Assembly: GCA_038870455.1 (NCBI GenBank)
Contig: JAWCPB010000023.1
Span: 1-18,544, forward strand
Source: Candidatus Micrarchaeia archaeon
GTDB lineage: Archaea; Micrarchaeota; Micrarchaeia; Burarchaeales; JACRGF01
Reading direction: 5' to 3'
Length of the DNA stretch: 18,544 nucleotides
Position 1 is the first letter of the stretch; every line of letters starts with the position of its first letter. The notes under the pieces are model-generated. The model was not told the DNA's origin, made no database searches, and saw only the letters and a list, made by a program, of their open reading frames with translations. Of the stretch, positions 5,973 to 15,983 are shown one piece after another. Made by a program: the position numbers and the translations under genes.

Positions 5973-6652
5973 TCAGCGATGCACACGCCAACCTCCCGGC
6001 GCTGCTGGAGGTGCTGCGGAAAATCGACGCGCTGGCCCCGGATGGTATTCTGTGTGCGGGCGATGTGGTCGGCTACAATCCATTCCCCAACGAGGTGGTT
6101 GGGGAGCTCAGGAAAAGAAAAATCCCCTGCGTGATGGGAAACCACGACTGGGCCTGCCTGAGCGGCGACACGGGCTGGTTCAATCCCAGCGCGGCAGCGG
6201 CGATTGAGTGGACGAGAGAGAGGCTGACGAGAGAAAACATGGAGTGGATCGCGAAACTCCCTAAGCGCATTGAAAAAAACCTTGGCGGGCTGCGCGTGCT
6301 GGTGGTTCACGGCTCTCCGGACGACGAGCTTTTTGAGTACGTTTTCCAGGAAGACGCAGAGGAGAGGGCGGAAAGGTGGCTGGGGGAAACTGACGTGCTC
6401 GTGCTGGGGCACACGCACGTTCCCATGGGGCTCGGGGTGGAAATCGGCGGGAAAGAGAGGATGATTGTGAATCCGGGTGCGGTCGGCCAGCCGAGGGATG
6501 GAAATCCCAGGGCGAGCCTCGCTGTGCTCGACACGGAGGAGTTCAAGTGCGAATGGGGTAGAGCCGAGTATGACGCCGGGGGCGTGAGGGATGAAATTCG
6601 CAGGCAGGGGCTTCCCCCAGAGCTGGGCGACAGGCTGCTGGCTGGATTTTAG
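5957..6652 (+). CDS. Calcineurin-like metallophosphoesterase (231 aa)
   Basis: Motifs SDAH, AGDVVGY, GNHD, VHGSP, GHTH, NPGAVGQPRDG. GTG at 5957 after GGAGGG overlaps the ncsA end (ORF track starts it at 5900). Confidence 0.92.
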   Translation: MRVALISDAHANLPALLEVLRKIDALAPDGILCAGDVVGYNPFPNEVVGELRKRKIPCVMGNHDWACLSGDTGWFNPSAAAAIEWTRERLTRENMEWIAKLPKRIEKNLGGLRVLVVHGSPDDELFEYVFQEDAEERAERWLGETDVLVLGHTHVPMGLGVEIGGKERMIVNPGAVGQPRDGNPRASLAVLDTEEFKCEWGRAEYDAGGVRDEIRRQGLPPELGDRLLAGF

Positions 6653-9600
6653 GCCTTGCACATGCTCGTGCCGCACTGCACGCAGGTCGCGCAGCCTTCG
6701 CTGAAGTAGAGCTTTGCGCCGCACACGGGGCACACGTCCTCTTCCCTTGTTCCTGCCTCCTCTGTTACCCCGGCCTTGAGCCCGCCTTCCGTGACAACGA
6801 CTTTGCGCGTGGGAAGCGCGGCTGGAATGTGCAGCACCTGCTCGGCCTTGCTGCGGTCCCTGTAGATGGTGATGCCCTTGCAGCGTAGCTTGTAGGCCAG
6901 CAGGTAGGCGTCCTCAACGTCCTTGACGGTGGCGTCGGCAGCGAAGTTGATCGTCTTGCTGACAGCGTTCTCCGTGTATCGCTGGAACGCGGCTTGTATG
7001 CGCACGTGCCACTCGGGCGAGATGTCGTGCGCGGTGACGAAAACGCGCTTGACGTCATCAGGAATGCCCTCAATGTGCTGTATGCTTCCTTTGGCGGCTA
7101 TCTTCCTCATCAGCTCGTCTGAGTAAAAGCCCTTCTCCTTGGCGATTTTCTCAAAGTACTCGTTCACGTAAAGCAGGTCCTTGCCGTCCATCACGCGCTT
7201 GATGTAGCTGATCGCAAAGAGGGGCTCGATGCCCGAGGAACAGTCGGCTATCATGCTGATGGTGCCCGTAGGGGCGATTGTTGTGACGGTGGCGTTCCTG
7301 CGCGGCGGCTCGCCCTTCTTGGCGTAGATGCTGTCCTTGAAGTTCGGGAAGGGACCGCGGATGGCCGCGAGCTCCCTGTCGTAGGCCACCGCCTCTTTTT
7401 CTATGAACGCCATGATCTTCTCGGCCAGGCCCTCGGCCTCCTCGCTGTCGTACGGAAGCCAGAGCTGAACAAGCAGGTCTGCGAAGCCCATGATGCCAAG
7501 GCCTATCTTCCTGTTGGCCTTCGTCATGTCCTCGATCTGGCTGAGGGGATAGCGGTTCATGTCGATGACGTTGTCAAGGAAGTGCACCGCGGTCCTAACG
7601 AGGCGCCTCAGCTTCTCCCAGTCGATTTCCTTCCTGCCGTTTGTTTCCTTTACGCACTTCGCGAGGTTGATCGAGCCGAGATTGCAGCTCTCGTAGGGCA
7701 GAAGGGGCTGTTCGCCGCAATTGTGGACGACGATGCCATTGGCGATGAACGATCGCGTGATCGGCTCAGAGAGGTCGAAGACTTCTTTGGACCCCTGCGG
7801 CTCGATGAAGGCGACTGTGTCTTCAAACCGCGTTGAGTAGTAATCCTTGCTTCCCAGTTGCTTGACTTTTTCTGAATGGATTCCGCGCATGAAACCGACG
7901 CGCTCGAGGAAAAGTGGGACCGCGTCCTTCGAGATCTCCAGCTCAAAACACACGCCGTCTGAAACATAGTTGCGTTTTTCTCCGCGCTTTGTGGTGTATG
8001 CAAAGCAGGCATGCGGGCTTCGCGAGCGGTCGTAGATGCGGGAGAAGATGCCGAGATTCAACAACAGCAGCTGCACTCCCTGGAGAAGCCTTCGGGATTT
8101 CGATGTGAGGCGAATGTAAGCGGACTTTTCTGGAACGATGTTGATCGTACCATCCGCGGTGAAGAGAGCCTGCAGGAAGCCGACCACCGCATCACGCGTG
8201 GCTTTGAATAGGCTTGCCGGAACTTCTTTCTCATCCGCATCTCCAAGCTTCACGCCAAGAGAATTGAAGAAATCGACAAAGAACTTGCTGTGGTAAGAAA
8301 GGTGGATAACCCCATTGGCTCTTTTTACTGCCTTAACCGGCCTTCCATAATAGCCGTCGATCACCGGCTTCAGGAGTGCGAGAACCGGCAGGTCTGCTTC
8401 GGAGAAAGTGAAGCCGACGCGGGCGTTTTTTCCCTCACGCAGCCAGCCGTCGCCCACAAGCCAGCCGAGAACCTGCCCGAGCTCGGCGCTCCATTCGCGC
8501 GGGAAGTTGGGATGATAAAGACGGCCGTTTGCCCCGCGGATTTCCGAGTTGGTCATAACCGGCAGGCGCGCATCGGAATTGAAAAAGCCAGCGCCTGATT
8601 GGATGAAGACCCTGCTCTTGCCGGGAACGAGTTCCTCGATGCGCCTCCATCCCTCAGGAGTCAGCACGCGGTGGTCCGGAGTTGCTGTAAGCTCGAAACC
8701 CGCGTGCGTGGTGAGCCTGACCACCGACTTTTTGCCGGTCTTCCAAGCTTTTTGCATGCGGAGAAGCCGTACGCCATGCTGGAGTTGAGTCTGCAAGCCA
8801 ACGGAAGCGGGCTGTGTGCGGGCATCAACGGCCACACTGACCTCCTCCGTGTCGGCCAGTTCTTCCATGCGAACCAGACCTCTGTCTGTCGATACGAGGG
8901 CATTTCCGGAAACGCAGGGATTAGTCGCCTCAATCTGCCCAACGCTCGGAGTGGGGTTGTCCTCGTTTATCCTGTCGAGGAAGATCATGCCTGGGTCGCC
9001 CGTGCGCCAGGCCATGGTGACGATGAGGCTGAAAACCTCGCGCGCGTTGAGGCGCTTGACGGGCTGGCCGTTGCGCGGGTTGATCAGCTCATAGTCCTGG
9101 TTGGCCAGCACGGCCTGCATGAACTTTTCTGTTGCGGCCACGGATATGTTGAAGTTCGTCAGCACGCCCTCGTTCTGCTTGGCGGTGATGAACTCGAGTA
9201 TGTCGGGGTGGTCGACGCGGAGGATGGCCATGTTCGCGCCCCTCCGCTTGCCGCCCTGCTTGATGGCTTCGGTGGCGGAGTCGAACACTTTCATGAAGGA
9301 CACGGGCCCGCTCGAGACGCCCCTCGTGCTCATCACCACGTCGTTCTTTGGGCGGAGGCGCGAGAAGGAAAAACCGGTCCCGCCGCCGCTCTTGTGAATC
9401 ATGGCGGTGTGCTTTATCGAGTCGAATATTTCCTCGATGGAATCCCCCACAGGAATGACAAAGCAAGCGCTGAGCTGCTGTATCTCGTTGCCGGCGTTCA
9501 TGAGCGTGGGTGAATTGGGCAGGAACTCAAGGTTTGCCATGGCCTGGTAGAACTCCTCCTCAGCGGCCGCGAGGTCTGCATTTTCGTCTGAAAGCCTGTC

Positions 9601-10062
9601 CGCCTGGGCGATGTTCTTGGCTACGCGCCTGAACATCTCGTCGGGAGTCTCGATGACGTTTCCCTCGCTGTCCCTCCTGAGGTACCTTTCCTTAAGCACC
9701 TTGAGCGCGTTGATGCTGAGCTTTGTTGTGACGGGCCGGCCGAAAACTAGCTCGCGCAGCTCCCGCAGCTCCTTGTGCTTCTGCCTGTAGAGTATGTACG
9801 CCTTGGCCGTCCTCGCGTGCCCGTTCTCGATGAGCACCTTCTCGACAATGTCCTGAATGTCCTCCACGCCGGGGGTCTCGCGGCCGTCGTATTTTTTTTC
9901 AAGCTCTTCAACCACTTGGTCGCTTAGCTTCTGCGCGAGCTCCCTGTCCTTCCCGCCGACTGCCTGGGCGGCCTTGAAGATTGCGTTGGTTATTTTCTCC
10001 TGGTCAAATGGCACAATGCGCCCGTCACGCTTGCGGATGAACTTCAGCGTTCTCTCTGTCAA
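6649..10062 (-). CDS. nrdJ: Class II (adenosylcobalamin-dependent) ribonucleotide reductase with N-terminal ATP-cone, one intein and a C-terminal Cys-rich ribbon
   Basis: ATP-cone (IRKRDGRIVPFDQEKITNAI...AKAYILYR), PNSPTLMNAG, LSACF, GGGTG, spliced NP/CGEQPL, SCNLGSINL, TTIAPTGTIS, SKTIN, KGITIYRD, and C-terminal CPVCG...EGCATCVQCG...C. Likely start TTG 10062 after GGTGG (ORF track gives 10074). No class I small subunit in the window. Confidence 0.92.
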   Translation of the reverse strand: MTERTLKFIRKRDGRIVPFDQEKITNAIFKAAQAVGGKDRELAQKLSDQVVEELEKKYDGRETPGVEDIQDIVEKVLIENGHARTAKAYILYRQKHKELRELRELVFGRPVTTKLSINALKVLKERYLRRDSEGNVIETPDEMFRRVAKNIAQADRLSDENADLAAAEEEFYQAMANLEFLPNSPTLMNAGNEIQQLSACFVIPVGDSIEEIFDSIKHTAMIHKSGGGTGFSFSRLRPKNDVVMSTRGVSSGPVSFMKVFDSATEAIKQGGKRRGANMAILRVDHPDILEFITAKQNEGVLTNFNISVAATEKFMQAVLANQDYELINPRNGQPVKRLNAREVFSLIVTMAWRTGDPGMIFLDRINEDNPTPSVGQIEATNPCVSGNALVSTDRGLVRMEELADTEEVSVAVDARTQPASVGLQTQLQHGVRLLRMQKAWKTGKKSVVRLTTHAGFELTATPDHRVLTPEGWRRIEELVPGKSRVFIQSGAGFFNSDARLPVMTNSEIRGANGRLYHPNFPREWSAELGQVLGWLVGDGWLREGKNARVGFTFSEADLPVLALLKPVIDGYYGRPVKAVKRANGVIHLSYHSKFFVDFFNSLGVKLGDADEKEVPASLFKATRDAVVGFLQALFTADGTINIVPEKSAYIRLTSKSRRLLQGVQLLLLNLGIFSRIYDRSRSPHACFAYTTKRGEKRNYVSDGVCFELEISKDAVPLFLERVGFMRGIHSEKVKQLGSKDYYSTRFEDTVAFIEPQGSKEVFDLSEPITRSFIANGIVVHNCGEQPLLPYESCNLGSINLAKCVKETNGRKEIDWEKLRRLVRTAVHFLDNVIDMNRYPLSQIEDMTKANRKIGLGIMGFADLLVQLWLPYDSEEAEGLAEKIMAFIEKEAVAYDRELAAIRGPFPNFKDSIYAKKGEPPRRNATVTTIAPTGTISMIADCSSGIEPLFAISYIKRVMDGKDLLYVNEYFEKIAKEKGFYSDELMRKIAAKGSIQHIEGIPDDVKRVFVTAHDISPEWHVRIQAAFQRYTENAVSKTINFAADATVKDVEDAYLLAYKLRCKGITIYRDRSKAEQVLHIPAALPTRKVVVTEGGLKAGVTEEAGTREEDVCPVCGAKLYFSEGCATCVQCGTSMCKA
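7720..8916 (-). mobile_element. Intein (399 aa) with LAGLIDADG homing endonuclease inside nrdJ
   Basis: Begins CVSGNALV after EATNP; block B LTATPDHRVL; endonuclease motifs VLGWLVGDGW and FLQALFTADGT; ends VFDLSEP...FIANGIVVHN followed by extein Cys (CGEQP). Removal restores the RNR motif NPCGEQ. Confidence 0.96.
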
Positions 10063-10063
10063 T

Positions 10064-10110
10064 CCACCACCCAAAAGAACAGGTGGTATGAGGTGAATGA
10101 ATTTTTAAAG
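10064..10110 (-). promoter_or_regulatory. nrdJ promoter/leader: TATA-like TTTAAAAA (10109-10102), inverted repeat ACCACC-N10-GGTGGT, SD GGTGG
   Basis: Read directly from the intergenic sequence; inverted-repeat arms at 10066-10071 and 10082-10087. Confidence 0.55.
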
Positions 10111-10127
10111 ATTTGTAGCAACGTCTG

Positions 10128-10133
10128 AAAAAA
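10128..10133 (-). terminator. Possible oligo-T terminator after acylphosphatase
   Basis: T6 on the minus strand immediately after the TGA stop. Confidence 0.35.
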
Positions 10134-10406
10134 TCAGTAAGTTGTGCGGAAATCAGTGAATTCTCCCCGGAAGGCCTGCCACTCGAAATCCACTTTTGTC
10201 ACGCGCGCGCCGGGAGGGCCTTTCCTGCACCAGGCGAGGAGCTTTTCGAGCATGGTCTTCTCTCCCTCGGCAATTACTTCCACGCCCCCATCATGCGTGT
10301 TTCTGACCCAGCCGGTTAGGCAAAGCCCTCTTGCAAAATCCTCCGTGCTCGCGCGGAAGAAAACGCCCTGCACAAGGCCGTGAATGTGCAGGTGCAGGCG
10401 CGCCAT
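10134..10406 (-). CDS. acyP: Acylphosphatase (90 aa)
   Basis: IHGLVQGVFFR, LTGWVRNTHDGGVEVIAEG, GPPGARV; ATG at 10406 after GGGGTGAGG (ORF track extends to 10499). Confidence 0.95.
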   Translation of the reverse strand: MARLHLHIHGLVQGVFFRASTEDFARGLCLTGWVRNTHDGGVEVIAEGEKTMLEKLLAWCRKGPPGARVTKVDFEWQAFRGEFTDFRTTY

Positions 10407-10683: not shown

Positions 10684-11064
10684 ATGGTCAAAAAGATCGT
10701 CTCGACTGAAAAGGCCCCAAAGGCAATCGGACCTTACGCGCAGGCTGTGGTGAGCGGCCGCCTAGTGTTCTGCTCGGGACAGATCGCGCTCGAGCCGGCA
10801 AGCGGGAAGATGGTTGAGGGAGACGTGGGGGCGCAGACGCGCAGGGTGCTCGAGAACCTGCGAGCCGTGCTCGAGGCCGCAGGAAGCTCGCTCGCCAAAG
10901 TGGTGAAGACGACAGTGTATCTCAAGGACATGAACGATTTTCCAGCGATGAACGAGGTCTATGCGGAGTTCTTCGGGCAAAACCCGCCCGCGAGAGCAAC
11001 CGTCCAGGCCGCGAGGCTTCCGCGAGACGCGCTTGTTGAAATAGAGGCAATTGCGGAGCTATAG
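10684..11064 (+). CDS. ridA: RidA/YjgF/UK114 family reactive imine deaminase
   Basis: [41 protein letters not shown] (catalytic Arg), [13 protein letters not shown]; 126 aa. Confidence 0.95.
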
Positions 11065-12144
11065 GAAGGCGCGCAGCCTCTGCAGGGCTCGCAGTTTTTC
11101 GCCTTCGCCTATTTTCGCGCTTTCGACTGCCTGCTTCAGCACGCTGATTGAATGGTCGTAGTCCCCTCTCTGCACGGGAAAGGGAATGCCGTCCTTGCCC
11201 CCGTGCGCGAAAGAATACTTGGCTGGGTCGCTCCAGTCCAGCGGTGTTCCGAAGAGCAGCTGGGAGAGCAGAGCCAGCGCGCGCAGCTTGGTGCGCCCAA
11301 TGCCGCGCAGGGCGACGAGCTCCTCGTAGTTCTTGGGCTGGAGCTCGAAAGCGCGCTGCAGCTCCGCCCATCCTCTCGGAGAAATGTCGATGGAAAGAAG
11401 CTCGTGGTGAGAGGGAAGGGAAAAGTCGTGCGCGAGGGTCCTCTGGCCGGAAAAGTGTTTTTGAATGTGTAGGGGGTTGTCGTTGATGAGGTCAACGCTC
11501 GCATTTCTCGCGGCATCATTTTTGCCGGAAGTTAGGTCAAGCACGCTCTCCTCGGCGGCCTGCGCCGCAATGCCCGCATGAGGCTCTTCGACAAAACAAC
11601 CGACCGTTTCGCCGAGCCAGTGGTAGCGCCTCGCCGTGCCCGTATCGGGCTTCATGCCCTGCTGCACGACGCACCACTCGCCCCTCTCGGTGAAGAAAAT
11701 GCAGTGGTGGTACAGCTCGTGGGAGTCCTGAACGCACGCCGAATCGACTTTCGCTGACAGGAAGGAGGCTCGCGTGAGGGAGGAGATTTTTTGGTCTGAG
11801 AGGGAGAGCCTCTCGCCGAGCGCGCTTATCTCAGCGGGCGCTTTGCGCGAGGCGGCTCCTTTTCCGCCGGCAACCCCGATGCCGTGCTCCTCGGGGGAAA
11901 AGGCGAGCTTGAGCGCGGCGCACGTTGTTGTGGTGAGCCCGCTGGAGTGCCAGTCGAAAGCAAGCGCGCAGCCGAGCGCCTGGAACCACACGGGATCGCT
12001 GAGCCTGCGCAGCAGCTCGCGCGGGCCGTATTCGAGGATGATCGCATCGGCTATTGCTTTTGACAACCTCACCATGCGCTGGAAGAGCCAGCGCGGAGCC
12101 CTGCCAGGGTGAAGGGGCAGGGTAACGCTGCCCGTCTTCTGCAT
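11059..12144 (-). CDS. DUF763 family protein (function unknown)
   Basis: Motifs [85 protein letters not shown], recognised from memory of the family. ATG 12144 fits leaderless spacing from the TATA-like box. Confidence 0.88.
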
Positions 12145-12164: not shown

Positions 12165-12199
12165 ATATTAAAACGAGCGGCAGGCGGAATTCCGGTGAA
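12165..12199 (-). promoter_or_regulatory. DUF763 promoter with upstream element shared with radA (copy 1)
   Basis: Plus-strand ATATTAAAACGAGCGGCAGGCGGAATTCCGGTGAA aligns without gaps to 15276-15310 at 28/35. Confidence 0.7.
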
Positions 12200-12228
12200 A
12201 TATTAAAGTATGCCTGTGTTTTTCTTGC

Positions 12229-13032
12229 GTGAGGCTCTGGCAGAAGCTCAGGCTCCCGCCTCCGAAAAGCGAGGCGAGCGGAGGGAGGCTCTCGCTGAAG
12301 GAAAACGAGGTGTATTCAGGCATCATCGTGCCGCGCCTTCCCTGCTTTGTGAGGCTGGACGGCTGGAAGTTCCACGGGCTCAGCGCCGCGCTTGGGTTTG
12401 AGAGGCCATTCGACAAGTTTTTTGCCGAGAGCATGGTGTTTGTCGCGAGAAGGCTCATAGAAAAATTCGATGCCGCGCTCGCATACATCTTCTCAGACGA
12501 GATAAACCTGCTTTTTCTCAAGAGGCCCGGCTTCGAGAGAGTCGAGAAAATCGATTCTGTGTTCGCCGGGCTCGCCAGCTCTCTCCTGTACGCAAGGCTG
12601 GCGGAAGAGAAGGAGCACGTGTCCGAGCTTGCTTTTGACTGCAGGGTGATTCCGGTTGAGAAAAAAGAGGTCAAAAAATACCTGGTTTGGAGGCAGGCCG
12701 AGGCGTGGAGAAACTGCTGCAATGCGGTTGCCTACTGGGCGTTGAGGAATGAGGGGCTGGGCGCGGCTGAAGCGGCCAAGAAGCTTGAGGGGCTTGGGGT
12801 GCGGAGACTGCGCGCGCTTGCGAGGAAAAAAGGCGCTGGAAAAAGCGAGGCATGGCACGAGCGAGGCATTCTCCTCCACTGGGAGGCTTACAGAAAAAAG
12901 GGGTTCGATCCGGTGAGAAGGAAAGCCGTTGTGGTGGAGAGGAGGAGAGTGAGGGAAGAGTGGAAGCCCCCCTTGTTCGCTGGCAGGCGAGGCAAAGCAT
13001 TTATTGAACGCGTGCTAAAGAAAACCGCATGA
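12229..13032 (+). CDS. thg1: tRNA(His) guanylyltransferase Thg1-like protein (3'-5' nucleotidyltransferase)
   Basis: VRLDGWKFH, FERPFD..F...M, YIFSDEINL, RVEKIDS, FDCRVI, YLVWRQAEAWRNC.N, W.ERG. TATA-like TATTAAAG at 12201-12208 supports a leaderless GTG at 12229. Confidence 0.93.
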   Translation: MRLWQKLRLPPPKSEASGGRLSLKENEVYSGIIVPRLPCFVRLDGWKFHGLSAALGFERPFDKFFAESMVFVARRLIEKFDAALAYIFSDEINLLFLKRPGFERVEKIDSVFAGLASSLLYARLAEEKEHVSELAFDCRVIPVEKKEVKKYLVWRQAEAWRNCCNAVAYWALRNEGLGAAEAAKKLEGLGVRRLRALARKKGAGKSEAWHERGILLHWEAYRKKGFDPVRRKAVVVERRRVREEWKPPLFAGRRGKAFIERVLKKTA

Positions 13033-13703
13033 TAAAAGCGCTTATTTTCGATCTCGATGGCGTCATCGCGGACACAGAGCCGCTGCACTATGCCTCTTTT
13101 CACGAGGTGCTGCGGCGCTGGGGAATACGCATTTCATGGCGGGAGTGGTCAACGCGCTACATCGGAACCGGCAGCAGCCACATACTCACAGACATATTCA
13201 GAAGGCATGGCATCAGCGAGGATGTGACCAAATGGGTGAAGCGGAGAAGCGAGATCTACGCGCGCATGCTCAGGGAAAAGAGGGTGAGGCCGATCAGGGG
13301 GTTCATGCGGTTTTACGCGCGGGCGAGAAGGGCGGGCCTGCCGTGCGCGGTGGTGAGCGGCGGGCACAGGGCGCACGTCAGGACGACGCTCCGCAAGCTT
13401 GGCATAGAGGAGGCGTTCGCCATCGTCTCGATAGAGGATGTGAAAAATCGAAAACCGCATCCCGAGGGATTTTTGGTTGCTGCGGAGAGGCTTAGGGTGA
13501 AGCCGAGCGCGTGCATCGCGTTCGAAGACAGTGTCGCGGGCGTGGAGGCTGCCGAGCGCGCGGGGATGACGACCATCGCGCTCACGACAAGCACCACGCG
13601 GAAGAACCTGAGGAAAGCGGATTTGGTTGTGGGGGACTACACGGACCCGCGGCTCAGGAAATTCTTGGAAAAACTTTCTAGTGCTTCCTTCCTTTCCGGC
13701 TGA
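13029..13703 (+). CDS. HAD-superfamily phosphatase (beta-phosphoglucomutase/CbbY-like)
   Basis: IFDLDGVIADTE, AVVSGG, KPHPE, FEDS..GVEAA..AGM; ATGA overlap with the thg1 stop. Confidence 0.93.
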   Translation: MIKALIFDLDGVIADTEPLHYASFHEVLRRWGIRISWREWSTRYIGTGSSHILTDIFRRHGISEDVTKWVKRRSEIYARMLREKRVRPIRGFMRFYARARRAGLPCAVVSGGHRAHVRTTLRKLGIEEAFAIVSIEDVKNRKPHPEGFLVAAERLRVKPSACIAFEDSVAGVEAAERAGMTTIALTTSTTRKNLRKADLVVGDYTDPRLRKFLEKLSSASFLSG

Positions 13704-14139
13704 AAAAGAGCTTGAGCACCCCGTACGCTCCCCTCGCGGCGAACGCGGCAGGCCTAAGGAGCACAGCTGTCCTCGTGGCCCTCAGCGTGCGCAGAAGCGA
13801 AGCAACAAAGAACTCGCCCTGTTGCTCATAGGAAACGGCGAGCAGGCCGACAAGCGGCGAGATGATGACTATCAGATCGAAGACGGTCCGTGGCTTGTCC
13901 TCGGCCAGAAAGCGCGCCTTGTTCCTCGCGATGGCCAGCAGGACGGCGAATTCAAGGAGAAAGGCAAACCATATCGCCCATTCAATCAGCGAGAGGAAAA
14001 AGAATTGCTCGGTCGAAAGCGGGAGGACGAGCTGAGCTAGGAGTATTGGAATGACGAGAAGCGCGAGCAGGACCATTGCATGCTCGTTGAAAACAGCCTT
14101 GACGGCTCTGTCGAGCTCCTCTTTTGCGCGCTTTGGCAT
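13678..14139 (-). CDS. Stand-alone voltage-sensor-like (S1-S4) membrane protein, no pore domain
   Basis: Four hydrophobic segments; S2 IEWAIWFAFLLEF, linker ARNKARFL, S3 FDLIVIISP, S4 LRTLRATRTAVLLR; ends at 153 aa with no GYG pore. TATA-like TTTTTTAATA at 14168-14159. Confidence 0.75.
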   Translation of the reverse strand: MPKRAKEELDRAVKAVFNEHAMVLLALLVIPILLAQLVLPLSTEQFFFLSLIEWAIWFAFLLEFAVLLAIARNKARFLAEDKPRTVFDLIVIISPLVGLLAVSYEQQGEFFVASLLRTLRATRTAVLLRPAAFAARGAYGVLKLFFSRKGRKH

Positions 14140-14182
14140 GCAAGAGTTTGGAGTGGGGTATTAAAAAATGTGAGGAATGCAG

Positions 14183-14213
14183 AAAAGAAAAAAAGCGAGG
14201 GGTGCGAGCCCTC
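14183..14213 (-). terminator. Putative radA terminator (short hairpin plus T-tract)
   Basis: Minus strand after the radA stop: GAGGG-CTCGCAC-CCCTC followed by GC and TTTTTTTCTTTT. Confidence 0.55.
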
Positions 14214-14225
14214 TCCCACAAGCGC

Positions 14226-15242
14226 TTAGTCCCTTATGCCTTCGGGCGTGACTTTGAACACGCACTCGCTCTCTGGCATGCTCGGGGAATCCACAAGCCT
14301 CGCGATGCGCCTCTCCTCCTTGCCCTTCCTGAGGTATATGCGGTAGGTCGCGTTGTGCGCCAGCACGTGGCCGCCGATGGGCTTGGTGGGGTCTCCGAAA
14401 AGCACTCCCGGGTCGTCCATGACCTGGTTCGTGACGTACACTGCGAGGTTGAAAGTGTCGGCAAGCCTCTGCAGCGCGTGAAGATGCTTGTTCAGCTTGC
14501 CCTGCCTCTCGCCGAGAGCCCCCCTGCCCATGTAGTCCGTCCTGAAGTGAGCCGTCAGCGAGTCGATGATGATCAGCTTGATGTTGTGCTGCTTGATCAT
14601 CTCCTCGGCCTTGTCGACGAGAATCATCTGGTGGTCTGAGTTGAATGCCTTGGCGACGAAAATGTTTTTGAGCGCGGCCTCGGCCTCTATGCCAGCCGCT
14701 CTTGCGATCTGCGCCACCCTCTCAGGCCTGAAAGTGCTTTCGGTGTCGATGTAGAGCACGTTTCCGCCCAGCCCGCCCTCCTCAGCCGGCTTTTGGGCAT
14801 TTACTGCAAGCTGGAAGCCCAGCTGCGTTTTCCCGCTTGAAAACTTTCCGTAAGCCTCTGTGATCGCCTGCGTCTCAATGCCACCGCCGAGCATGGCGTC
14901 GAGTTCCTTGCTGCCCGTGGCCACTCTGCCGATGCTCTTCCTCCGCTCGAGAATCCTGTCCGCGGTCTCGTAGCCCATCTCGAGCGCATCCCTCGCTGCT
15001 GCGATGGTTTTTTTCGCGGTCTCGACAGCGATGTCGGCAGCCTCCTCGAGCTCGTGAGGCGAGGAGGTGGCTATTTTTTCAAGAGAGTCGTAGCCTGCTT
15101 TCCTGAGCTTCTCGGCAGTCGCCTCGCCAACTCCCGGCAGGTCCTCGAGCGAAACAGGTTTTTTCTTTTCCTCTTTCATTTCAATCACTTCGCTCGCCAC
15201 TCCCTCGACAGGAACTTCTTCAGCCTTTTTTTCACGCGCCAT
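14226..15242 (-). CDS. radA: DNA repair and recombination protein RadA (338 aa)
   Basis: N-terminal Hh[16 protein letters not shown], Walker [21 protein letters not shown], Walker [41 protein letters not shown] 15242 after SD GAGGTG. No intein. Confidence 0.98.
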
Positions 15243-15275
15243 GCAAAACACCTCAGCGGAAGGTTTGGCTCCGGC

Positions 15276-15310
15276 ATTTTTAAACGAGAGGGAGCTGGAG
15301 TTCCGGTGAA
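15276..15310 (-). promoter_or_regulatory. radA promoter with upstream element shared with the DUF763 gene (copy 2)
   Basis: Plus-strand ATTTTTAAACGAGAGGGAGCTGGAGTTCCGGTGAA; TATA-like TTTAAAAA on the minus strand at 15284-15277; 28/35 identical to 12165-12199. Confidence 0.7.
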
Positions 15311-15371
15311 TGCAGGCGTTTGGGCGAATGAGGTATATATTAGTATTGGGACACACATGAGGAGGGGGAGA

Positions 15372-15983
15372 ATGGACAACTCGCTTGCTCTCATCGCAGT
15401 CGCGGTGGTCCTCGCGGCCTGCTGCGGCCTGCCGGCCTTCCAGCCACAGGCGAACGCCTCACAGCCCGCGCCCGCCGCGCAGCCGAACTACACTCCGCCT
15501 GCCCCGCCCGCTTTTCCCCTGCAACCGCCTGCCCCGCCGGCCGCGCCCGCGGGCTGTCTTGTGGACGAAATCCGGTCACTGCTCAGCGAATTCAACGCCT
15601 CGCGCGCCGCCGCGTACGCCAACTGCTCCGTCATCACGAGAACGGACTCCTTCCCGTGTCATGACACGCCCTCCTGCCAGCAGGCTTGCTATGCCTCGTG
15701 GCTGTGCAGGCAGCAGGCTTGGAACCTCGACATCACTTTCATAGAAGCCATCCGCGACTGGAGGGGCAACGAAACAATGTTGGGCAGGGGAATGGAGGAG
15801 GCCGAGAGAGGGATTTCCTCCGGAAACAGGCAGGCCGCGCTGGAGGGCATTTCCGCGATGCGCGCCTCGGCAGCGGCCATTCAATCCAACCCGCTTTTCG
15901 GACGCTATGCGTTCTGTCCTCCGATGGACTTCGGCTGGAGCGCGCTTGAGGAAGCCGAGAGGAAAACGCGCGCGTGCGGGTGA
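15372..15983 (+). CDS. Secreted/lipoprotein-like Cys-rich protein with Pro-rich linker (203 aa)
   Basis: ATG 15372 after GGAGG; TATA-like TATATATT near 15334; signal [19 protein letters not shown]; Pro/Ala linker; 10 Cys; sequons NAS, NYT, NCS, NET. The ORF-track extension to 15054 overlaps radA and is unlikely. Confidence 0.75.

Follow-up and report, generated by a model that had tools for sequence, protein, structure and literature searches.

Two genes in a stretch of 18,544 nucleotides (nt) from a Candidatus Micrarchaeia archaeon, radA and a member of the orphan family DUF763, have upstream regions that carry closely similar sequences. The stretch (the window) is contig C23 of the genome referred to here as G000, which belongs to a DPANN archaeon (1.04 Mb in 51 contigs, 60% G+C, rated 90% complete). 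The question raised by this locus is whether the shared sequence is a promoter element and, if so, which genes it serves and what protein reads it. LexA is, to our knowledge, absent from archaea, and we know of only one damage-response regulator that has been worked out there, Orc1-2 of the Sulfolobales. It is proposed here, with a probability of about 0.75, that the copies are a conserved, orientation-specific upstream promoter element of a replication, recombination and repair regulon of Micrarchaeia, with a core like that of the archaeal origin recognition box (ORB) and an Orc1/Cdc6 protein as candidate binder. That the element is a real regulon site is judged highly probable; its reader and its signal are graded separately below.

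The shared element in the window and its genome

The radA and DUF763 copies were found to match without gaps at 24 of 29 positions (12171-12199 against 15282-15310) and, when extended to 12165-12199 and 15276-15310, at 28 of 35. Both counts, and the letters behind them, agree with an earlier reading of the window made from its letters alone (the sequence-only reading). As that reading had stated, both copies are intergenic, in the same orientation and upstream of the minus-strand DUF763 and RadA genes. The equal distance to the TATA-like box that it had claimed is exactly 16 nt from the 10-nt core in each, and a window search allowing at most one mismatch gave these two copies alone, as had been judged by eye. 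In 400 mononucleotide shuffles of both intergenic regions the best gapless 29-mer match was 15-20 and none reached 24. The 10-mer with at most one mismatch is not unusual alone, since at least two matches were obtained in 70 of 200 shuffles of the 18.5-kb window; what makes the pair significant is the alignment over 29 nt, its constant place relative to TATA, and the data from the whole genome and from other genomes.

Eight exact copies of the core, TTCACCGGAA, are present in G000, and six of them have a TATA-like box 14-17 nt further on, the gene coming after TATA in each case. Twenty genomes simulated with a third-order Markov model, in which TATA was sought at 12-20 nt from the core, had on average 2.05 cores and 0.05 cores with TATA; the simulation leaves out the AT-richer make-up of intergenic DNA, so that the contrast with 8 and 6 is somewhat inflated, which tells against the proposal to that extent. 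The genome scan that the sequence-only reading had suggested was made with a genus-level weight matrix. The six sites scored 27.8-35.9 bits, far above the next best match at 14.6 bits, and sites at the same TATA spacing stand before replication, recombination and repair genes.

The six boxes stand before genes for MCM (Pfam domains MCM_N, MCM_OB and MCM), HerA, RadA, DUF763 and an 89-amino-acid (aa) protein without a family, and before a 41-aa open reading frame (ORF) that has an 82-aa ORF behind it. At the same spacing, copies that deviate at one or two positions are found before the genes for NreA (Nre_N and Nre_C domains), PriL (primase large subunit) and NurA, all of which were identified by Pfam, as was HerA. 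A mismatch copy at the same spacing also precedes a gene for a beta-CASP/metallo-beta-lactamase protein. Pyrimidine-rich bases at the position of the TFB recognition element (BRE), first seen in the window pair, were found in all six promoters.

The suggestion of a damage regulon of radA and DUF763 held in part. A shared site does link the two genes, but the gene set is far wider, with MCM, HerA, NurA, NreA, PriL, conserved small proteins and, in relatives, TnpB and LAGLIDADG genes. The copies therefore read as a replication, recombination and repair promoter class as much as a damage regulon.

Two of the targets have features of their own. The MCM gene (G000:C4 from about 25295, plus strand) has a long insert that looks intein-like by eye. 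The 82-aa ORF (L071:1643-1885, minus strand; G000:C10) resembles DUF736-like Atlas clusters (score 0.93, a lead only), and a relative of it lies directly upstream of radA in G030 (L185).

Conservation and structure of the element

In G001, a genome of the same genus, all five exact cores are promoter-type and precede sequence matching the HerA, 89-aa, RadA, MCM promoter and 41-aa operon targets. G001 also keeps the variant copies at NreA, PriL and NurA. The PriL copy reads CACTGGAA in G001 and CACCGGAA in G000, and the position at which they differ is a variable one in the class. At DUF763, the G001 copy is TTCAATGGAATCC, and a gene for an ATP-dependent DNA ligase has its stop codon immediately before it.

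Across the class, the motif [ACT][CG][CT]GGAA followed by 13-21 nt and TATA was found within 220 nt of radA in 15 of 30 loci, and 400-800 nt upstream, at the operon head, in 5 further loci; the reversed-sequence control gave 0 of 30. The radA operon starts with a 196-202-aa gene without a family in G019, G008, G026 and G028, and with the small 82-aa-ORF relative in G030. Among 12 Micrarchaeia DUF763 loci, the strict motif is upstream in 4 and a looser form in 3 more, to which the operon of G008 is added. In that operon (G008:C4:30460-33185; L005, L180, L221) one box promoter precedes the 202-aa gene, radA, and DUF763 placed 16 nt after radA. The idea of a shared cis-element at fixed TATA distance joining radA and DUF763 is thus borne out by this operon and, as described below, in Halobacteriales. 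By eye only, the 202-aa protein (MAEYYFD...) is a possible DEDD-type exonuclease.

In 41 genomes, CASYGGAA-N14-20-TTTWWA gave 232 matches against 27 for the reversed control, overlapping gap variants being counted in both, and the bare 10-mer gave 138 against 45. CASTGGAA sites with TATA numbered 20 against 0 in G019 and 8 against 2 in G008. The G008 sites precede MCM, HerA, the 89-aa gene, two 41-aa-type genes, a LAGLIDADG gene, a TnpB-like gene and the 202-aa-radA-DUF763 operon, and the NreA copy of G008 has the TTCACCGGAA form. On inspection by eye, about 20 of the 29 loci of the 89-aa gene have the box upstream.

For most of the class the form of the element is (TT)CACTGGAAAGTTACCCC; in the window genus it is TTCACCGGAA(C)TCC with a C-rich stretch after it. 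About 15-19 nt lie between the end of the element and TATA, which places it next to the BRE on the upstream side, and this interval is not conserved from genus to genus. The GGARTTCC pseudo-palindrome that the sequence-only reading had described is not conserved either; the class consensus is GGAAAGTTACC.

The box may extend beyond Micrarchaeia. The DUF763 promoters of two Woesearchaeota metagenome-assembled genomes (MAGs; L090, L094) have (A/C)CACTGGACA at 14-17 nt before TATA, and the DUF763 locus of an unclassified archaeon (L123) has TTCTCGGAAAAC at 17 nt before TATA.

The haloarchaeal motif and the DUF763 protein

According to Boubriak et al. (2008, Saline Systems 4:13, PMC2556686), an 11-bp Halobacterium motif, TTTCACTTTCA, lies upstream of TATA at the genes radA1, top6B, vng17 and vng280, which are induced by ultraviolet (UV)-B light. 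They also give a near match at npa, a transposase gene, and similar boxes at radA in Methanospirillum and in other haloarchaea. This is the TTTCAC-type motif that the sequence-only reading had named, correctly, for haloarchaeal radA. No binder has been named for it since 2008 in the searchable literature. At the DUF763 loci of Halobacteriales, matches to TTTCACTTTCA with at most two mismatches were found at -55 to -69 in 6 of 12, and by eye a CACTT(T/C)C box occupies that place in 10 of 12, the box of the Halobacterium or Haloferax orthologue being TTCACTTTCAC. The antisense strand (0 of 12) and the DUF763 loci of other lineages (0 of 68) served as controls, since the reversed motif overlaps itself and is invalid for this purpose. 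The radA-DUF763 link is, as judged from these promoters, present in both lineages, Micrarchaeia and haloarchaea.

The first seven bases of the haloarchaeal motif, TTTCACT, are common to the Micrarchaeia consensus. The class consensus TTTCACTGGAAA shares 7 of 11 positions with it, while the window copies, (A/T)TTCACCGGAA, share TTTCAC or TTCAC only. Each of the two elements precedes the TATA box of radA and of some further genes, among them a transposase gene in haloarchaea and TnpB genes in relatives of G000. They differ in build, the haloarchaeal motif being a direct repeat, TTTCA-C-TTTCA, and the Micrarchaeia element CACTGGAAA plus GTTACCCC. They also differ in gene set, to which Micrarchaeia add MCM, HerA, NurA, NreA and PriL. 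Induction by UV is documented for the haloarchaeal genes (PMC2556686). Whether the hypothetical gene vng280 is itself a DUF763 gene was checked with the peptides implied by its quantitative PCR primers, which had no match in 11 haloarchaeal DUF763 proteins.

The DUF763 protein of the window matches PF05559 at 407.5 bits (cut-off 35.5), with residues 6-324 aligned to positions 2-319 of the 319 in the profile. Archaeal and bacterial members of the family are about 50% identical, and the alignment has many invariant polar residues and a helix-hairpin-helix (HhH)-like stretch, LxGIGxxxLxAL. Invariant positions include H12, D64, H66, D134, H147, R172-R173 and a GGKDG loop. The AlphaFold2 (AF2) model has a pLDDT of 85.6 and a pTM of 0.85. 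Against solved structures, sequence comparison gave nothing below E 0.24, and Foldseek against PDB gave no match at E <= 0.001. The best result of the VIA wide fold search was Z 5.1 over 63 residues, in a range common for the tool, with the HhH-like helices at 209-297 set against Fft3 and the TEFM N-domain. No match was obtained in NCBIfam or PADLOC, and in the searchable literature one paper mentions the family, in a domain census only.

The genes next to DUF763 were listed for 51 loci (102 flanking ORFs), of which about 10 have DNA-metabolism genes. These encode two DNA ligases, Orc1/Cdc6, GyrB (twice), Fpg, an AP endonuclease with a RecF-like protein, a 5'-3' exonuclease, a PD-(D/E)XK nuclease and a KaiC/RadB-like protein. 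Such neighbourhoods are suggestive of a tie to DNA metabolism. In five MAGs of Syntrophobacterales, Thermodesulfobacteriota and Pseudomonadota (L136, L142, L145, L148, L151) a radical SAM gene is upstream of DUF763 and a 425-aa ORF without a family is downstream, which makes this a conserved gene arrangement in bacteria. The shared box, the radA-DUF763 operon of G008, the ligase-DUF763 tandem of G001 and the haloarchaeal UV motif together support the assignment of DUF763 as a putative RadA-linked DNA-metabolism protein.

Comparison with origin recognition boxes and other control sites

The loose resemblance of the core to an ORB, remarked on in the sequence-only reading, is supported by PMC4153887 and PMC1904270. 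Table 2 of PMC4153887 gives the archaeal ORB consensus as CTTCCAGTGGAAACGAAAGGGGT and lists Methanomassiliicoccales ORBs that include TTTCCACTGGAAACAG-AGGGGT and TCTGCACTGGAAATGA-AGGGGT. The class core, CACTGGAAA / CAGTGGAAA, is identical over 9 nt to ORB cores in that list, and in both the G:C run starts 4 nt after the core. The euryarchaeal consensus is GTTCCAGTGGAAAC-AAA----GGGGG (PMC1868953). In Pyrococcus, TTTCCACTGGAA is found in the ORB oligonucleotides, and its TTCC and GAA do not vary (PMC1904270). Set against the ORB dyad core, TTCCAGTGGAAA / CACTGGAAA, the window copies have CACCGGAA, with a left arm TTCA one base shorter than TTCCA.

The arrangement is different. The Micrarchaeia sites are single and at a fixed TATA distance; ORBs are clustered around an AT-rich unwinding element, usually beside orc1/cdc6. 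In Thermococcales, an ORB-bearing oriC lies beside radA and cdc6 (PMC11005403). A local repeat scan of G000 for an origin turned up hairpin repeats only, a family dispersed over the genome and frequently located where contigs end (AACCCTTTTTCGGCG...CGAAAAAGCGTTGACGGAAAAA and variants; G000:C11:9360-9520; C26:15800-16090; C32:40-520; C43:4975-5123). The Micrarchaeia sites are thus not origin ORBs, being single, promoter-bound, away from orc1/cdc6, and with core plus G-string at background, although a protein of the ORB-binding kind may read them.

Two Orc1/Cdc6 paralogues are encoded in each of six genomes (G000, G001, G008, G013, G019 and G033). Type A is about 385 aa long, and its Cdc6_C winged helix is canonical (E 1e-17 to 4e-20); the G000 copy is truncated by a contig end. 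Type B is shorter (about 345-357 aa; G000:C24:6666-7709; orthologues L247, L248 and L250), with the ATPase and lid domains and a C-terminus that stays below the Cdc6_C cut-off. This C-terminus is matched, just over threshold, by HTH_24, a generic winged helix-turn-helix (wHTH) model, in G000 and G001. Either type could read an ORB-like box. The longer paralogue is divergent beside a conserved small gene that appears SepF-like by eye.

A precedent is found in Sulfolobus islandicus, where Orc1-2 is a proven promoter-binding damage regulator that uses ANTTTC boxes (Sun et al. 2018, PMC6061795); the sequence-only reading had named Orc1-2 in this role, and the paper confirms it. There, as in Micrarchaeia, a short promoter-proximal box is common to a gene set; in Sulfolobales these are damage-response genes, and the box is bound by a non-initiator paralogue that activates or represses them. 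The Micrarchaeia genomes likewise have two paralogues, one without a canonical Cdc6_C match. The systems differ in that the Sulfolobales motif is 23-55 nt before ATG with ups, ced and tfb3 as targets, against radA, MCM and herA here. On reading the copies, ANTTTC was absent from the radA copy and had no conserved place among the six G000 copies. In bacteria, DnaA and LexA SOS boxes act as promoter operators, each a short box, recognised by a replication initiator or a damage regulator, that is reused at replication and repair genes. These belong to another domain of life, with other proteins and another promoter logic, and serve as an analogy only.

Proposed mechanism

A sequence-specific DNA-binding protein on the box would control the recruitment of TBP and TFB. 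Its regulon would comprise MCM, RadA, HerA, DUF763 and two sets of conserved small proteins, with NreA, NurA and PriL as weaker or lineage-variable members. The leading candidate for the binder, because the box equals the ORB core with a G:C run at ORB spacing, is an Orc1/Cdc6 paralogue acting after the manner of Sulfolobales Orc1-2; this prediction is given just short of an even chance. Archaeal activators that recruit TFB or TBP usually bind upstream of BRE, and repressors usually bind over TATA or the start site. Activation is the more likely mode here, if only modestly preferred over repression, because the site is upstream of BRE and TATA rather than over TATA or the start, and the BRE is pyrimidine-rich. 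As to the signal, the halophile parallel together with RadA, HerA, NurA and NreA would suggest DNA damage, and MCM and PriL would suggest replication or growth state; the two appear evenly balanced.

Mobile genes under the box

About 10 of the 20 sites in G019 precede TnpB-type genes with near-identical 30-nt promoters. Three of these genes (L202, L198, L196) were called by Pfam (OrfB_IS605 and/or Cas12f1-like TNB) and the others by N-terminal similarity. The other sites precede a 66-aa ORF (3), 41-aa-type genes (2), the 89-aa gene (1) and the radA operon (1). At the remaining three (L194, L206, L207) a conserved stretch, ...ctaccgaggggcactcgggaagtaacgcctgcaa..., lies about 50 nt past TATA with no ORF close by, and possibly represents a small RNA gene under a promoter of this class. 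The three box promoters of the 66-aa ORF are identical and exactly 25,989 nt apart (G019:C1:342814, 368803, 394792), which implies a segment of roughly 26 kb in three putative tandem copies.

TnpB copies with the box also occur in G004 and G008, while in G000 and G001 the box is at host genes only. It is more likely that mobile genes took over a host promoter class than the reverse, because the host copies share only box and TATA and are at orthologous genes across orders. The ribonucleotide reductase gene with its intein and the MCM gene with its intein-like insert both belong to G000, in whose relatives free-standing LAGLIDADG genes carry the box.

Weight of the evidence and alternative explanations

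Several observations weigh against a conserved repair regulon with an ORB-like site. No copy was found at 10 of 30 radA loci and 4 of 12 DUF763 loci. The DUF763 copy of G001 deviates from the exact core (TTCAATGGAA) even within the genus. The element is carried by TnpB and LAGLIDADG genes, and its targets MCM and PriL are replication genes, neither of which fits a pure damage regulon. Compared with TTCCAGTGGAA, the core of the window genus lacks one base and has a C in place of T. No G-string (GGGG) was found shortly 3' of the core at the Micrarchaeia sites, which have a C-run on the strand where ORBs have the G-string; the exception is the MCM copy, with GGGGG 9 nt after GGAA. In the six genomes, core plus G-string was not enriched over background, no copy lies within about 600 nt upstream of orc1/cdc6 genes, and no ORB-type repeat cluster was found next to those genes. 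A single Pyrococcus mini-ORB was bound only weakly by Cdc6 and was unoccupied in vivo (PMC1904270). Finally, family f8 (4 genomes) is without the CACTGG half at radA, and its 89-aa gene keeps AAAGTCACCC alone in 2 of 3 loci with enough upstream DNA. As AAAGTCACCC is the counterpart of the second half of the element, its retention without the first argues that the element is bipartite, with a putative box 1, CAC(T/C)GGAA, and a putative box 2, (A)GTTACCCC, which is CTCCACCCC in the window genus.

Of the other readings, the one to be taken most seriously, although it is less than probable, is that the box is bound by a dedicated factor outside Orc1/Cdc6 (a small wHTH, ribbon-helix-helix or other lineage-specific protein) and that the ORB likeness is convergent or reflects a shared GGAA-type winged-helix half-site. 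It would account for the absence of the element near orc1/cdc6, the missing canonical G-string and the poor binding of single mini-ORBs by Pyrococcus Cdc6 (PMC1904270); the haloarchaeal TTTCACTTTCA is a direct repeat unlike an ORB, and several conserved small regulon proteins could be autoregulated factors. No candidate for such a factor was found, however, and the 9-nt identity to published ORB cores, with the same 4-nt spacing to the G:C run, is hard to ascribe to chance. The best-conserved small member, the 89-aa Micrarchaeota-specific protein, misfits by its distribution. Its own promoter is the top-scoring G000 site (35.9 bits), the motif recurs at most of its loci, and its matches listed (120 homologues) are 63-93% identical, the named records being all Micrarchaeota. 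Yet it is found in 31 of 41 relatives, including f8, which is without the CACTGG half, and was not found in G030-G032, G034-G037, G039 and G040 (90-97% complete), among which G036 and G039 have the box before radA and DUF763. Nor could it be matched to a DNA-binding family, to any other family or to a solved structure, and autoregulation by this protein is very unlikely.

It is equally hard to credit that host genes received a portable promoter from the ends of IS200/IS605-type (TnpB) elements, of which the boxes would be remnants. The TnpB-like genes behind about half of the G019 sites and the box-bearing copies in G004 and G008 would fit, but the host copies belong to orthologous genes in different genera, families and orders and have diverged in their spacers, with box and TATA alone conserved, and G000 and G001 have the box at host genes only. 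Reading by an alternative general factor, a second TFB/TBP pair, would be in keeping with the two TFB genes of G000 and the atypical pyrimidine-rich BRE positions of the six promoters. Archaeal TFB contacts roughly 7 nt of BRE, however; the box, at 15-19 nt from TATA, is beyond that reach, and the box-TATA interval is not conserved across genera, which leaves this explanation scarcely probable. Chance resemblance of the two intergenic regions has a negligible probability: two one-mismatch 10-mers in the window would be unremarkable, but 24 of 29 was reached in none of 400 shuffles, six promoter-type copies stand against 0.05 expected, and the copies are conserved at orthologous genes across the class. 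The regulon element with an ORB-like core remains the preferred reading.

Features of the window

The coordinates of the two promoters and of the adjoining genes are given in Table 1. The ATG of DUF763 is only 20 nt past its TATA-like box, which suggests a leaderless or near-leaderless mRNA. An AT-rich box, ATATTAAAG (12200-12208), abuts the upstream end of the element at DUF763. The divergent Thg1-like gene has its GTG about 20 nt beyond this box, and a protein on this copy of the element could also act on the divergent promoter. The window further contains a class II-type ribonucleotide reductase gene (RNR; 1141 aa, 6649-10074, minus strand) with an intein that has a LAGLIDADG domain by Pfam. 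No convincing copy of the element was found at the RNR promoter (10100-10135).

Table 1. Promoter elements and genes at the DUF763 and radA loci (positions in the window).
Feature	Position	Strand	Remarks
Core box, DUF763 promoter copy (sense TTCACCGGAA)	12190..12199	-	One of 6 promoter-type copies in G000
16-nt C-rich spacer / second half of element, DUF763 copy (sense TTCCGCCTGCCGCTCG)	12174..12189	-	Counterpart of box 2 of relatives, GTTACCCC
TATA-like box of DUF763 (sense TTTTAATAT)	12165..12173	-	20 nt before ATG at 12144; read from sequence
DUF763 gene, 361 aa, helix-hairpin-helix-like motif	11059..12144	-	Pfam PF05559, E 5e-122
Core box, radA promoter copy (sense TTCACCGGAA)	15301..15310	-	Orthologous copy in G001; CA(C/G)TGGAA in other genera
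16-nt C-rich spacer / second half, radA copy (sense CTCCAGCTCCCTCTCG)	15285..15300	-	Between core and TATA
TATA-like box of radA (sense TTTAAAAAT)	15276..15284	-	33 nt before ATG at 15242; GAGGTG Shine-Dalgarno-like stretch between; read from sequence
radA, 338 aa, HhH and Rad51/RecA core	14226..15242	-	Pfam Rad51 E 5.7e-94; HHH_5 E 1.4e-10
Divergent Thg1-like gene	12229..13032	+	Pfam Thg1 E 1.6e-22
Divergent 203-aa gene without a family, own TATA-like box GGTATATATTAG near 15333-15344	15372..15983	+	No family

Implications

In the searchable literature, which omits most subscription journals, no description of the Micrarchaeia element was found and no transcription control was described for DPANN archaea. 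A wider scheme can be drawn, although as a whole it is speculative and rather unlikely. In it, Orc1/Cdc6 would double as a DnaA-like transcription factor in Micrarchaeia, and perhaps in DPANN archaea more widely, and single ORB-derived boxes about 17 nt upstream of TATA would couple MCM, a primase subunit, RadA, HerA/NurA, NreA and DUF763 to initiator status or damage. TnpB and homing-endonuclease genes would hijack the switch. The TTTCAC(T) start in common with the haloarchaeal UV motif and the adjacency of radA and ORBs in Thermococcales would be traces of one ancient archaeal circuit for the control of radA and replication. DUF763, which occurs in archaea and many bacteria, would be a hitherto undescribed HhH-type DNA-repair enzyme of this circuit.

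The finding provides a sharply defined element of 16-20 bp, a concrete list of targets and two candidate binders in all six genomes examined. It suggests that TnpB elements may time their expression with host replication or repair. The link across lineages, between the operon and motif of Micrarchaeia and the haloarchaeal UV motif, would tie the widespread orphan family DUF763 to RadA-linked DNA metabolism.

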